From a virus: 10,056 nucleotides of DNA. The notes beneath the pieces are model-generated. The model had not been told where the DNA came from, searched no databases, and saw only the letters and a program-made list of their open reading frames with translations. The stretch is from UHGV virus genome UHGV-1666018; one strand, 5' to 3'. Both the position numbers and the translations under genes were made by a program. Below, one piece after another: positions 1 through 9,060 of the stretch; the stretch's first letter is position 1, and every line of letters begins with the position of its first letter.

Positions 1-5
1 TGCCT

Positions 6-39
6 GTCTCGTGGGCTCGGAGATGTGTATAAGAGACAG
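6..39. other. Illumina Nextera transposase adapter (Read-2 arm ending in the 19-bp Tn5 mosaic end); library artefact, not genomic
   Basis: Positions 6-39 read GTCTCGTGGGCTCGGAGATGTGTATAAGAGACAG, the Nextera adapter with the Tn5 mosaic end AGATGTGTATAAGAGACAG at 21-39. The preceding 5 nt are probably also adapter or index. Confidence 0.9.
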
Positions 40-753
40 GAGCGTTCCATCTCCAAAGCTATCCTCGGCGGCACGCTGACCACGGAAGCCGGAGACAAAG
101 GCGCGCGCTCGCTGGGTGAAGTGCATAACGAGGTGCGCCGGGAAATCAGGGATTCTGATTTACGTCAGCTGGCCGCCACGCTGAACCGCGATCTGGTGTA
201 TCCGCTGTATGCCCTGAACACCGCCCACGCCATTGATATCCGTCGCCTGCCGCGTATCTGTTTCCAGACAAAAGAGCCGGGGGATATCACCAAAATCACC
301 AGTGCGGTGATGCAGCTCAGTACGGGGATGGATATTCCTGATCCCTGGGTACGGGAGCAGACCGGTATTCCACAGCCTGCCCCCGGTGAAGCCATCTTCC
401 GTGTCCGTCAGAGTGGCAATGAACCTGCTCAGACAGACAAAGAGATGCCACCGGAAAAACAGGAAAAGACAGAGCAGACGGCGCTGTCAGCCCGAGTGCC
501 GGAAGCGAAAAGCAGCCCCCGTGATGAACTGGACGACATGGGGGACGCGGTGCCTGCCCGCCGGTTACAGGAGGCCATCGACCCGCTACTGGATCCGGTC
601 ATTGATGCCATCAGAACGCGGGGGCTGGCGGATGCGCTGGCAGACCTGCCCGCCCTTTACCGTGAAATGGATGATTCCCGTCTGATGACGCTGCTCAGTG
701 ATGCCATGTTTGCTGCGGAAATGAAGGGGATGCTGGATGGCACAGGGGATTGA
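40..753 (+). CDS. Portal protein, C-terminal fragment (Mu gp29/H-like); 5-prime truncated at the adapter junction
   Basis: Frame is open from the first genomic base and ends at TGA 751-753, overlapping the F start. It sits immediately upstream of a MuF-family gene, as the portal gene does in Mu. The GTG at 25 given by the ORF track lies inside the adapter and is not a real start. Confidence 0.7.
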   Translation, partial: ERSISKAILGGTLTTEAGDKGARSLGEVHNEVRREIRDSDLRQLAATLNRDLVYPLYALNTAHAIDIRRLPRICFQTKEPGDITKITSAVMQLSTGMDIPDPWVREQTGIPQPAPGEAIFRVRQSGNEPAQTDKEMPPEKQEKTEQTALSARVPEAKSSPRDELDDMGDAVPARRLQEAIDPLLDPVIDAIRTRGLADALADLPALYREMDDSRLMTLLSDAMFAAEMKGMLDGTGD

Positions 754-2062
754 TTTAGGTTATGCCGCGACCCTTCCCTCAAAAGAGGCAGTGGCATACT
801 TCCGCGCCAAAGGGGCGCATATCAGCTGGAACTGGTTCGAAACAAACGCAGATGTTCATGCCCGTTCATTCACGGCGGCAAAAGTGGCACGCCTGGACGT
901 ACTGACCACACTACAGGCGGAAGTGCAGCGTGCTGTTGATGAGGGGATTTCACAGAAAGCATTTATCCGCACACTGACGCCCCGCCTGCAAAAGCTGGGA
1001 TGGTGGGGAAAGCAGATTGTGGTGGACAGCGCCGGTAACGCGGAAGAAGTGCAGCTGGGCAGTCCCCGCCGTCTGGCGCTGATTTACAACGTGAACACCC
1101 GCGTGGCTTACAATGCCGGGCGTTACACGCAGATGATGAACAACACGGACACGCATCCGTTCTGGCAGTATGTGGCGGTGATGGACAGCCGCACCCGCCC
1201 GGCACATTCCGCCCTTAACGGGCTGGTATTCCGCTATGACGATCCGTTCTGGAATACACACTACCCGCCCAATGGCTGGAACTGTCGCTGCCGTGTCCGG
1301 CCATTGTCTCAGGCCCGTCTGGATGCAATGGGGTTATCCGTTTCATCCGGTCAGGATCATCTCTCCACCCGCAATGTTGAGGCTGGCGTGGATAAGCAGA
1401 CCGGGGAAGTCAGAGAAATGCCGGTGACCACATATTCAGATGGCACCAGAACCATGACACCGGATGTGGGCTGGTCATATAACCCCGGCTCGGCAGCGTT
1501 CGGCACAGACCAGGCGCTGATCCGCAAACTGATCGAGGTGAAAAGCCCGGAGTTACGGGAAATGGTGGTTCAGGAGATGAACAACAGCCCGGAGCGGCAG
1601 CTGGCGTTCCGCATCTGGGCAAAAAATATCATGAAGACCCGGCGCGGTGGTCACGATATCCGCACGCTGGGCTTTATGACCGAAAGTATTGCGCAGGCGG
1701 TGGAAAGCCGGACGGGAACACCTCCGGCCCGCCTGCTGGCTATGAGCGGTAAAAATGTGCTCCATGCGGACAGCGTGAAGCATCAGAATGATGGCATCGC
1801 CCTGACGCCGGAGGATTTCGCACAGCTTCCCGCCATGCTGGCCGCACCCGATGCCGTGCTGTGGGATAATGTCCACCAGAACCTGCTTTACATCACTGAA
1901 ACCCGTGACGGAACGGCAAAGATTGCCGTCAATGCGCCTTATGGTGTGAAGCGTCAGCCGGATAAGCTGGATGTGGTGATTAATGCCTACAGAGTGAGTC
2001 GTGCAACCCTGATTGATGCTGTCCGGGGTGGAAAACTGGAATTACTGGAAGGTAAGTTGTAA
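737..2062 (+). CDS. F: Phage head morphogenesis protein, MuF (gp30) family
   Basis: 441 aa ORF containing the MuF hallmark region RTRPAHSALNGLVF...HYPPNGWNCRCRVRPL. Position between portal and G-like genes matches Mu. A GA-rich stretch precedes the ATG. Confidence 0.85.
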   Translation: MAQGIDLGYAATLPSKEAVAYFRAKGAHISWNWFETNADVHARSFTAAKVARLDVLTTLQAEVQRAVDEGISQKAFIRTLTPRLQKLGWWGKQIVVDSAGNAEEVQLGSPRRLALIYNVNTRVAYNAGRYTQMMNNTDTHPFWQYVAVMDSRTRPAHSALNGLVFRYDDPFWNTHYPPNGWNCRCRVRPLSQARLDAMGLSVSSGQDHLSTRNVEAGVDKQTGEVREMPVTTYSDGTRTMTPDVGWSYNPGSAAFGTDQALIRKLIEVKSPELREMVVQEMNNSPERQLAFRIWAKNIMKTRRGGHDIRTLGFMTESIAQAVESRTGTPPARLLAMSGKNVLHADSVKHQNDGIALTPEDFAQLPAMLAAPDAVLWDNVHQNLLYITETRDGTAKIAVNAPYGVKRQPDKLDVVINAYRVSRATLIDAVRGGKLELLEGKL

Positions 2063-2149
2063 GCCGGTGGTGGGGGTCGAACCCACATAAACATCCTTCG
2101 GGCGAGGATATCCCTCAGGTGCCGCTTTACCAGTTAAGAGTACACCAGC
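2063..2149 (-). other. tRNA-like element (T-arm plus acceptor-stem mimic); not a confident tRNA gene
   Basis: On the minus strand the 3-prime part reads GTGGG-TTCGACC-CCCAC-CACCGGC: a canonical 5-bp T-stem, 7-nt TTCGANY-type T-loop and a 7-nt strand that pairs with GCTGGTG at the 5-prime end (7 bp, one G-U). The interior does not form a canonical D-arm or anticodon loop, and no CCA is encoded. Confidence 0.25.
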
Positions 2150-2187
2150 TTGTATTTATTTTAACCAGATAGTTTTACGGAGGCAAT

Positions 2188-2661
2188 ATGTCATCCATTG
2201 ATGCGGCTGTGGTGGTGGACGTTGCGCGTCTCCAGCGGGTGTTTGCCCGGCTTCAGTTTGTGGAAGGCGGGAAAGACCTGGCCCGCAGTGTGGCGGCGAG
2301 TCTTCTGTCATCGTCAGAAATGGCGTTTGAACAGGAAAAAGAGCCGGACGGCGAACGCTGGCATGACTGGTCAGATCCTTACCGCAAGTGGCGTACCCGT
2401 AAGGGATACATGCCCGGCAAAATCCTGACGCTAAACGGCGATCTGGCCCGACGCCTGACCACGGATTATGGCGATACCTGGGCGCTGATTGGATCAAATG
2501 AGCCTTATGCGGCCATTCATCAGTGGGGTGGCCTGCCCGGTATGCCACCGGGACCGGCAGCCATTGGCGCGCGTCCGTATATGGGCTTTGATCAGGTGGC
2601 AGAGCAGGAGATCATAGACGAAATCAGAAAACGCTTTAAAAAGGCCACAGAAACGCCTTAA
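2188..2661 (+). CDS. G: Virion morphogenesis protein, Mu G (gp31) family
   Basis: 157 aa ORF with a strong GGAGG Shine-Dalgarno sequence 5 nt upstream of the ATG. Size and position after F match Mu G. Confidence 0.8.
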   Translation: MSSIDAAVVVDVARLQRVFARLQFVEGGKDLARSVAASLLSSSEMAFEQEKEPDGERWHDWSDPYRKWRTRKGYMPGKILTLNGDLARRLTTDYGDTWALIGSNEPYAAIHQWGGLPGMPPGPAAIGARPYMGFDQVAEQEIIDEIRKRFKKATETP

Positions 2662-2836
2662 TTGTTTAAGGTATGCAGATGCATTACCTTACCCCCTTCA
2701 GGCGCGTGTCGTGATTTTCTAACCTGTATTTAACGGGCTTTAAAATCTGCGTGAAGCGCCTTTGCATTTTTTCCTGAAAGCACTTCCTGAAATCCCGCAA
2801 AACCCGCCCTGAAAAACACCGGCTTATGCTGCCGGA
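2662..2836 (+). promoter_or_regulatory. Non-coding region upstream of gene I with direct repeats; candidate late promoter or operator
   Basis: 175 bp with no credible ORF. Contains three direct copies of CCTGAAA (2773-2779, 2786-2792, 2808-2814), two CCCGC motifs, and a -10-like TAAAAT at 2741-2746 with a poor -35. In Mu a C-activated late promoter lies upstream of I. Confidence 0.3.
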
Positions 2837-3961
2837 ATGAAGACGAAAAACACGCCCAAACTTGCTTATGCCATTCTGAATGCCATCAGCCTGTCCGCAG
2901 ACGGGGACGGTGACTGGTGTCAGATCATGCCTGCCGGTCGGGTAAAGGCCCGTGACGGTCGCCCGGAAAAACCGGCTGAAGGCTGGCTGATTAACCGTGC
3001 GACCGTTGAGCGCATGGTATCCCGGGTTGTGGCGCTCAATCAGCCGGTAAAAATTGACTACAACCACCAGACCCTGATTAAGGGGCATCCGGCACCGGCT
3101 GCCGGTTTTGTCATGGCCTCACCGGAAAACTTCCGCTTCAGTGAAGAGCGGGGTTTTGAAGTGCGTCCGGACTGGAACCCTCCGGCCATTGAACACCTGC
3201 GCAATAACGAGTTTCCCTGGTTTTCCCCGGTGATTGGTTATGACGAAATCACCGGGGAACCTGTTGAGCTTCGGATGCTGGCTATTACCGGTGACCCCGG
3301 TCTGACTGGCATGAGTCCTGTCGCCGCACTGTCGGCGGATGACCTTTATAACGCCTTAAACCCTCCTTTAAAGGACACCTCCATGAATGAGCAATTACGC
3401 CAGTTGCTGACGGCGCTCGGTCTGACCGTGGCTGACGGTGACGAATTTACGCCGGAACTGGGCACGGCGGCGCTGTCTGCCCTTACCGGGATCAAAACCC
3501 GTGCGGATGCGCACGACACCCTGAAAACGCAGGTTGCCAGCCTGTCGGCAGAGCTGGAAACCGCAAAAGGCACACCAACTGGCGGCACTATTGATCTGAC
3601 GAAATACGTGCCCGTTGAGACGTATAACGCCCTGCGTACCGAATATGTCGCGCTGTCGGCACAGCACGGCAGCACCACGCTGGAGCAGTTGCTGGATAAG
3701 GCCGAGTCCGAAGGACGCATTTTCAAAAGCGAACGCGGATACATGGAAGGACTCGGACAACAGATTGGCGTTGCAGCACTTTCTGCACAGCTTGACGCCC
3801 GCCAGCCGGTTGCGGCTCTGACCACTCTTCAGACCGACACCGTGACCGTGCCGGATAAAAAGACCGCCACAGCCTCACTGTCGGCTGAAGATATCGCCGC
3901 CGCCCATCTGCTGGGTAAAACTGAAGCCGAGTTCCTGAAAATGAAAGAGGAAATGCAATAA
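2837..3961 (+). CDS. I: Head maturation protease / scaffold protein, Mu I (gp32) family
   Basis: 374 aa ORF between G-like and major-head genes. The C-terminal half is Ala/Leu/Glu/Gln-rich and predicted helical, as expected for a scaffold. Its stop overlaps the T start (TAATG). Confidence 0.8.
   Translation: MKTKNTPKLAYAILNAISLSADGDGDWCQIMPAGRVKARDGRPEKPAEGWLINRATVERMVSRVVALNQPVKIDYNHQTLIKGHPAPAAGFVMASPENFRFSEERGFEVRPDWNPPAIEHLRNNEFPWFSPVIGYDEITGEPVELRMLAITGDPGLTGMSPVAALSADDLYNALNPPLKDTSMNEQLRQLLTALGLTVADGDEFTPELGTAALSALTGIKTRADAHDTLKTQVASLSAELETAKGTPTGGTIDLTKYVPVETYNALRTEYVALSAQHGSTTLEQLLDKAESEGRIFKSERGYMEGLGQQIGVAALSAQLDARQPVAALTTLQTDTVTVPDKKTATASLSAEDIAAAHLLGKTEAEFLKMKEEMQ
3383..3961 (+). 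CDS. Possible nested scaffold protein from an internal in-frame start (Mu Z-like)
   Basis: In-frame ATG at 3383 preceded by AAGGA (3371-3375) at about 7 nt spacing. Downstream sequence is the scaffold-like half of I. Mu makes Z by internal initiation within I. Confidence 0.35.
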   Translation: MNEQLRQLLTALGLTVADGDEFTPELGTAALSALTGIKTRADAHDTLKTQVASLSAELETAKGTPTGGTIDLTKYVPVETYNALRTEYVALSAQHGSTTLEQLLDKAESEGRIFKSERGYMEGLGQQIGVAALSAQLDARQPVAALTTLQTDTVTVPDKKTATASLSAEDIAAAHLLGKTEAEFLKMKEEMQ

Positions 3962-4908
3962 TGCCTACCCCGATTACACCGGCGATGATCACCGCCCTGA
4001 TGACGGGCTACCGTTCTGATTTTCAGGCCGGGATGTCCATGGCTCCGTCGCAGTACCAGAAAATTGCGATGACCGTACCGTCCACGTCGAAATCCAACAC
4101 CTACGGCTGGCTTGGGCAGTTCCCGCAGTTCCGTGAGTGGATCGGCTCCCGCGTCATCGAGAAGATGAAAGCCTATGGCTACGCCATCGTGAACAAAACC
4201 TTCGAAGGCACCGTCGCCATTAGCCGCGATGACTTCGAAGACGACAATCTTGGCATCTACTCCCCATTGTTCCAGGAGATGGGGCGCGCTGCGGCGGCAC
4301 AACCGGATGAACTGGTCTTTGCTGCACTGCGTGACGGGATTAGTGCGGCCTGCTATGACGGCCAGAACTTCTTTGATACCGAACACCCGGTTTACCCCAA
4401 AGTGGATGGCTCCGGGGATGCACAGATGGTCAGCAATATGTTTGTGGCAAAAACCGGCTCTGTCGGTGCACAGGCGGATTACAGTGGCCCGGCCTGGTAT
4501 CTGCTCGACTGCTCCCGCGCGGTAAAACCGCTGATTTATCAGGATCGCCGCAAAGCCGAACTGGTTGCCCAGACAAAAGTCGATGAAGGCCGTGCGTTTA
4601 CTGATAACGAGTTTGTGTTCGGTGCTTCCGCCCGTCGCAATGTGGGCTACGGCTTCTGGCAGATGGCCTACATGATGCAGTCACCGCTGACGCTGGATGC
4701 GCTGTGGCACGGCTGGTCAGCCATGCGTGACTTTAAGGCTGACGGTGGCCGCAAACTCGGCATCAAACCCACCCATATTGTTGTCCCCACCTCGCTGGAA
4801 AAACAGGCGGTGCAGCTGCTGGAGCGCGAGCTGTTCGCAGACGGTAACGCCACAGTCTCTAACGAGATGAAGGGCAAGCTGGAGCTGGTTGTCGCGGATT
4901 ATCTGTAA
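3961..4908 (+). CDS. T: Major head (capsid) subunit, Mu T (gp34) family
   Basis: 315 aa ORF immediately after the protease/scaffold gene; size and position match Mu T. Followed by a strong stem-loop. Confidence 0.85.
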   Translation: MPTPITPAMITALMTGYRSDFQAGMSMAPSQYQKIAMTVPSTSKSNTYGWLGQFPQFREWIGSRVIEKMKAYGYAIVNKTFEGTVAISRDDFEDDNLGIYSPLFQEMGRAAAAQPDELVFAALRDGISAACYDGQNFFDTEHPVYPKVDGSGDAQMVSNMFVAKTGSVGAQADYSGPAWYLLDCSRAVKPLIYQDRRKAELVAQTKVDEGRAFTDNEFVFGASARRNVGYGFWQMAYMMQSPLTLDALWHGWSAMRDFKADGGRKLGIKPTHIVVPTSLEKQAVQLLERELFADGNATVSNEMKGKLELVVADYL

Positions 4909-8459: not shown

Positions 8460-8936
8460 ATGAGCACACGTAAGAAAAAAACGGCGGTTTCTGACGAGGC
8501 CGTGATGGAGGCTATCCGGGATGCACTTGAAGACGGCGATCCCCGCACCGCCGGGCTGGCTGAACAACTGGCGAACGGCTATGTGGATCTGCTCGACGGT
8601 CTGCCGTTCGGGGAATCCCGTGAATACCGCGTCACCTTCCGCGAACTGACGGCAAAAGACAGCATTGATGCGGAGAGCGAGGCCGAGCGTCTTATGGAAA
8701 CCCGAAACGGTCCGGTTCTTGTGGCCTCACCGGCACTGCGCGGCATTGCGCTGCTGCGCCGTCAGATTGCCGCTGTCGGCCAGATTGAGGGGCCATTGTC
8801 TCCGCGTCAGATAGGACAGCTCAGCGAGCGCGATCTCTCCCGACTGATGGCGGCAGTAAGCCTGCTTGATTCCGCGATGGCCGGAAAGCTGGTCGCTGAA
8901 CGGGGGCGACCAGATGCAGTGCCGGGATCAGATTGA
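8460..8936 (+). CDS. Tail assembly chaperone (position of Mu gp41/Y)
   Basis: 158 aa acidic protein between the tube and tape measure genes, the conserved chaperone position. AGGA ribosome-binding site upstream. Confidence 0.65.
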   Translation: MSTRKKKTAVSDEAVMEAIRDALEDGDPRTAGLAEQLANGYVDLLDGLPFGESREYRVTFRELTAKDSIDAESEAERLMETRNGPVLVASPALRGIALLRRQIAAVGQIEGPLSPRQIGQLSERDLSRLMAAVSLLDSAMAGKLVAERGRPDAVPGSD

Positions 8937-9060
8937 AGAAGCCGCAATTGTGCTGGGGATGGTGACAAAAAGCGGCCCGGAGTGGGCGCTTAACCTCCCC
9001 TTATCGCAGCTTTACCGGCACTGCCGACAGACCGAAAAAATTCTCAGAACGAAGCAGTAA
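8866..9060 (+). CDS. Overlapping +1-frame ORF: candidate frameshift extension of the tail chaperone, or a small independent gene
   Basis: The +1 frame is open from 8860 to TAA 9058-9060, overlapping the last 77 nt of the chaperone ORF and ending 3 nt before the tape measure start. A G-run CGGGGGC (8901-8907) sits in the overlap. An internal ATG at 8914 preceded by GGGGG could instead start a 49 aa protein. Confidence 0.4.
   Translation: MIPRWPESWSLNGGDQMQCRDQIEEAAIVLGMVTKSGPEWALNLPLSQLYRHCRQTEKILRTKQ

Follow-up and report, generated by a model that had tools for sequence, protein, structure and literature searches.

The window considered here is the whole stretch of DNA that was analyzed, 10,056 nt of UHGV virus genome UHGV-1666018. 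Nearly all of it is an ordinary Mu-like late region of the E. coli prophage type. On the plus strand, the genuine 3′ part of a Mu-type portal gene (DUF935/Portal_Mu; 40–753, codons 293–529 plus the stop) is followed by genes for MuF, a virion morphogenesis protein (gpG-like), a protease (Mu I), the gpT major head protein, FluMu_N, Gp36, Gp37, DUF2635, sheath, tube, Gp41, and the start of a tape-measure protein running off the 3′ end. After the portal, the gene order (MuF, gpG-like, protease, gpT, sheath, tube, and tape measure) is the same as in the usual E. coli Mu-like prophages. The 39 bases preceding the portal codons are of a different kind, and they are the main subject of this report. 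Read from base 1, the window consists of TGCCT, then GTCTCGTGGGCTCGG and AGATGTGTATAAGAGACAG, and then GAGCGTTCC..., with which the portal sequence begins.

Bases 1–39 and their counterparts on other contigs

Bases 6–39 (GTCTCGTGGGCTCGGAGATGTGTATAAGAGACAG) are identical at 34 of 34 positions to the 34-nt Nextera Tn5ME-B (Read 2) oligo, which is made up of a 15-nt primer stub and the 19-bp synthetic Tn5 mosaic end (ME). Picelli et al. 2014 (PMC4248319) list Tn5ME-B (Illumina FC-121-1031) as a string identical to window 6–39 and give the complement strand, Tn5MErev, as CTGTCTCTTATACACATCT. On the plus strand, the Read 2/index-primer binding stub (GTCTCGTGGGCTCGG) occupies 6–20 and the hyperactive ME (AGATGTGTATAAGAGACAG) 21–39, base 39 being the transferred 3′ end of the ME; both are exact matches. 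Searching both strands and allowing up to 3 mismatches, we found this single match to the 34-mer in the window. Chance occurrence was considered and rejected, as the 34/34 match stands against 0 of 200 shuffled sequences with a match and 0 expected by chance. In a literature text search, the exact 34-mer and the word “Nextera” occurred together in 1,836 papers.

The five bases in front of it (TGCCT, 1–5, plus strand) correspond to the last 5 nt of the Illumina i7 index N703 (TTCTGCCT) in the orientation of the index PCR primer, as judged from the published primer and from other contig ends. Of the 8-mers found in front of the adapter in 127 occurrences on other contigs, none but TTCTGCCT ends in TGCCT; the remaining ones (e.g., CTAGTACG, AGGAGTCC, and CATGCCTA) we take to be indices of the same kit. 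The N703 primer is given as CAAGCAGAAGACGGCATACGAGAT-TTCTGCCT-GTCTCGTGGGCTCGG in the key-resource table of PMC12153380, a paper that also gives the N702, N705, and N706 indices. The window thus shares with a Nextera Read 2 adapter carrying i7 N703 the 34-nt identity, the index tail, the position at an end, and the ME facing the insert, whereas it differs from the full i7 N703 end in having 5 of the 8 index bases and no P7. Elsewhere in the window, its 3′ end included, Nextera Read 1, TruSeq, P5, and P7 sequences are absent, and neither a mate-pair junction nor a second adapter was found there.

The same adapter is widespread. In IMG/VR, the exact 34-mer is present in at least 120 DNA stretches, and the species-representative genome set contributes at least 120 more, spread over numerous unrelated phyla of bacteria and archaea. 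In 126 of the 127 measured occurrences on other contigs, it lies no more than 80 nt from the end of the locus, with the ME pointing inward and an 8-nt index before it, and bases 1–39 of the window show this very geometry on the plus strand. The listed positions in the species-representative genome set follow the same terminal pattern, judged by eye. Many of the affected contig names in this set carry low k-mer coverage (0.9–18), values that fit the survival of a contig tip when no genomic extension competes with it.

GenBank phage records are affected as well. With window 1–1500 as the BLAST query, three unrelated “Bacteriophage sp.” records match all of bases 1–39. LT985573 ends in T10, the full P7, TTCTGCCT, and the adapter; LT985588 in ...CATACGAGAT, TTCTGCCT, and the adapter; and LT996076 in TTTCTGCCT and the adapter. 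Beyond the adapter, each carries a different sequence. Because these records begin with index/P7 and Nextera adapter, their ends are library junctions. It may be noted that all three (LT985573.1 1–76, LT985588.1 1–52, and LT996076.1 1–43) are labeled “complete genome” and that, in the same search, the ends of Listeria phage LM 4-14-1 and Streptococcus phage 140 also match the adapter.

A search of E. coli genomes with bases 1–39 further returned imperfect adapter copies (89–94% identity) in four complete chromosomes, namely at NZ_AP024114.1:4330931-4330966, at NZ_CP069692.1:3167112-3167149 (in ybjT), at NZ_CP054388.1:2277747-2277780 (in a glycosyltransferase gene), and at NZ_CP071328.1:3493839-3493872. 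These are probably adapter remnants that were carried into finished assemblies.

The significance of the finding is purely practical. Unless it is trimmed off, the adapter gives rise to a portal “protein” whose start is false and whose N-terminus is artificial; it also hints at a prophage or genome boundary that does not exist, and the perfect Tn5 ME left in the contig could be flagged by a transposon/IS scanner. The remedy is to remove bases 1–39 and to label the portal gene as 5′-partial.

The junction with the portal gene and the prophage

A search of E. coli with window 1–1500 gave 253 records, and among the matches listed all alignments begin at query base 39. The best match, NZ_CP189662.1 (strain 102651, from stool, Gambia), is 100% identical over 39–1500. 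When the whole window was searched against E. coli genomes, the listed rows started at 39 or 40, with best identities of ~96%. Homology in BLAST begins at 39 and not at 40 because the genome happens to have a G at this position, too: base 39 is G both in the ME and in the E. coli reference genome. As a consequence of this shared base, the junction is ambiguous by one base from the sequence alone.

Upstream of the junction, the sequence in the reference is ...GAAACCATGATTTCGTGGGG; here two E. coli genomes mutually agree, whereas the window agrees with the E. coli sequence upstream of window 40 at 14 of 38 bases. In the alignment, bases 1–39 of the window are those of unrelated contig ends and the bases from 40 onward are those of E. 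coli portal genes. On both counts, identity to the former and disagreement with the latter, the original prediction that the first 39 nt are adapter and not biology stands up. We put the probability that bases 1–39 are leftover Illumina Nextera library adapter, and hence an assembly artifact, at about 97%; no feature of the sequence speaks against it. The exact 48-nt junction pattern had 0 matches in the viral, genome, and metagenome contig collections. Base 1 of the window is very probably also base 1 of the contig.

The reference DUF935/Portal_Mu gene (NZ_CP189662.1) measures 1590 nt and encodes 529 aa. Window base 40 corresponds to reference base 3002, which lies 876 nt (292 codons) into the gene and is the first base of codon 293; therefore, only residues 293–529 are present in the window. 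This fragment scores 97.5 bits against PF06074 (Portal_Mu; gathering cut-off 23.9) and covers only profile positions 231–336 of 336. Window 40–753 matches the Mu gp29-type portal gene (PF06074) of the E. coli 102651 prophage over its 3′ part with 100% identity but, compared with the Mu gp29-type portals of E. coli Mu-like prophages, is without the N-terminal 292 residues. Their absence is due to the end of the contig and not to a different gene. The window accordingly holds 237 genuine codons against the 529 aa of the reference, and no complete portal gene with a native start.

What stands in for that start is an in-frame GTG inside the ME (25–27, plus strand), from which the mechanical ORF list derives an ORF at 25..753. 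The adapter contains no stop in the portal frame and adds five artificial residues when read from the GTG, or 13 when read from base 1; in the latter case, the translation is CLSRGLGDVYKRQ|ERSISKAILGG..., as opposed to ...FETMISWG|ERSISKAILGG... in the reference. With the adapter open in this frame and a GTG at hand, ORF finders therefore report a “complete” protein of 242 aa, made up of five artificial residues at the front and a genuine 237-aa C-terminal fragment. That the GTG at 25 would be a false portal start had been proposed from the window’s letters, and it proved correct: the real 529-aa gene begins 876 nt upstream of the window-40 match, and the Pfam profile is entered only at position 231. 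Exact look-ups of the artifactual protein in the protein collection, as a 250-aa edge-partial form and as a 242-aa form with an M or V start, came back empty. As a side observation, a GGAG lies within the adapter 2 nt upstream of the spurious GTG (window 19–27); it is Shine-Dalgarno-like, with a spacing that is too short. With this motif in front of it, the false start might be accepted more readily by some gene callers.

The genomes of strains 102651 and JE86-ST05 reveal what normally lies before the break. Running up to their portal genes are MuB-like genes, Gam, Mor, lysis genes, Gp27, and then a conserved 554-aa ORF without a Pfam match, which by its position is a candidate terminase; after the portal come the same late genes as in the window. 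In complete genomes and draft assemblies alike, the N-terminal half of the portal and the early region are found directly upstream, and in nine further assemblies with an identical sheath protein, an intact 529-aa Portal_Mu gene lies upstream in all nine; the look-up with the sheath protein gave only long NCBI contigs in which the portal gene is intact. Since the breakpoint falls more than 12 kb inside the element in JE86-ST05, the start of the window is not a prophage boundary. The contig end is a library junction, just as the original prediction had it, with the portal N-terminal half, the 554-aa ORF, Gp27, and the early region continuing upstream elsewhere.

Origin of the terminal bases and alternative explanations

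Given what is observed, namely the identity of bases 1–39, the breakpoint, the truncation of the portal gene, and the generality of the artifact, a plausible course of events can be outlined. Tn5 transposase loaded with Tn5ME-B would have cut the DNA in vitro at portal codon 293 and joined the ME to it, after which the index and P7 would have been attached in an index PCR with primer N703. Sequencing of a fragment that did not reach the read length would then have run through the insert into the adapter. Adapter sequence is not known to enter Illumina reads except by 3′ read-through of this kind, where the read is longer than the insert. If the reads were not adapter trimmed, the assembler could have retained the adapter bases as a contig tip, with no competing genomic extension at this place, probably because coverage was low; the tip would be the reverse complement of a read-through into the i7-side adapter. 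The mechanism of Tn5 leaves 9-bp gaps. Bases 40–48 (GAGCGTTCC, plus strand) would thus represent the 9-nt target of the staggered cut, filled in during the library PCR, and mark the site of in vitro tagmentation. That precisely 39 adapter bases were kept may, speculatively, reflect the k-mer size of the assembler or partial trimming.

As the ME is a transposon end, the window could in principle record a real insertion in vivo, in which a synthetic transposon of the EZ-Tn5 or mini-Tn5 type entered the portal gene. Such ME-flanked insertions do exist, since the 19-bp ME alone is found at 100% in five complete E. coli genomes, several of them engineered laboratory strains (such as EPI300 and MG-phbCAB). 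The 20 bases interior to the ME, however, are the Illumina Read 2 stub and the N703 tail, an arrangement that occurs only in finished library molecules; they make an insertion of this type very unlikely, to the point of being hardly credible. Speaking against it as well is a dedicated search with bases 1–39, in which no perfect copy of the 34-mer was found in 5,426 complete E. coli genomes. A natural IS50/Tn5 end in the prophage would have in its favor that the IS50 outside end (OE) matches the ME of the window at 16 of 19 positions, and the natural 19-bp ends indeed have the same length and belong to the same transposase-binding family (15 of 19 positions alike for the inside end, IE). Yet the reverse complement of 21–39 has no mismatch to the synthetic ME and differs from the natural OE at 3 positions and from the IE at 4. 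The ME and OE sequences were those of PMC2566895. In contrast to natural Tn5/IS50 ends, the window carries the engineered hyperactive ME and a synthetic interior, and it has neither IS50 nor a second end: only one end lies inside the window, no other ME was found there with up to 3 mismatches, and where IS50 sequence (the transposase gene) would be expected, the visible 20 bases are primer stub and index. An identical 34-mer, moreover, is found on the contig ends of unrelated phyla, archaea among them. The natural IS50 end was rejected on its ME mismatches and on the interior sequence, which as an Illumina primer with index rules it out and leaves it a negligible chance. The concern that the Tn5 ME might be misread as a real transposon end was well placed.

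Two further explanations leave the adapter an artifact and differ in how it came to lie here. The 34-mer also serves as the reverse “overhang adapter” on locus-specific primers in two-step PCR amplicon libraries, and several of the papers with both the 34-mer and “Nextera” among the matches listed are amplicon protocols. The window, on the other hand, is a 10-kb contiguous assembly of the shotgun type through a prophage late region, in which an amplicon ending inside the portal gene is implausible; we regard this source as highly unlikely. The other explanation concerns the prophage itself, which might have a real break or rearrangement at portal codon 293 or close to it, for instance if it is a remnant left by truncation or recombination. 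The adapter-bearing read would then have been the sole extension available, and bases 1–39 would still be artifactual. We consider a genuine break of this kind very unlikely. Leftover Nextera adapter at a library junction is thus the reading that we adopt for bases 1–39.

Minor features of the late region

Over 39–4500, the window is identical to the strain 102651 locus at 4460 of 4462 positions, yet the whole window reaches only ~96% to 102651 or to any complete genome. This suggests a mosaic prophage in which the tail half is differently related.

In the tail region, the Gp41_Mu tail-assembly gene (8460–8936, frame 3) overlaps a frame-1 ORF (8866–9060) whose end lies 3 nt short of the tape-measure ATG (9064), and the run CGGGGGCGA lies within this overlap at 8901–8909. 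The arrangement looks like the usual programmed frameshift of tail chaperones, except that a shift of −2 or +1 would be required.

Immediately past the stop codon of MuF, a tRNA-like element of 88 nt lies on the minus strand (window 2062–2149), antisense to the late genes. It scores 27.8 bits with the Rfam tRNA model, which it covers in full, against a gathering score of 29, and its anticodon region measures 26 nt compared with 11 in the model. ARAGORN called no tRNA at 2062–2149, and the fold energy is not unusual (z = −1.0). RefSeq has a “tRNA-OTHER” annotated at the corresponding place in two genomes. Compared with the 80-nt copy in JE86-ST05, the acceptor and T stems of the element are changed on both sides, with the pairing kept.
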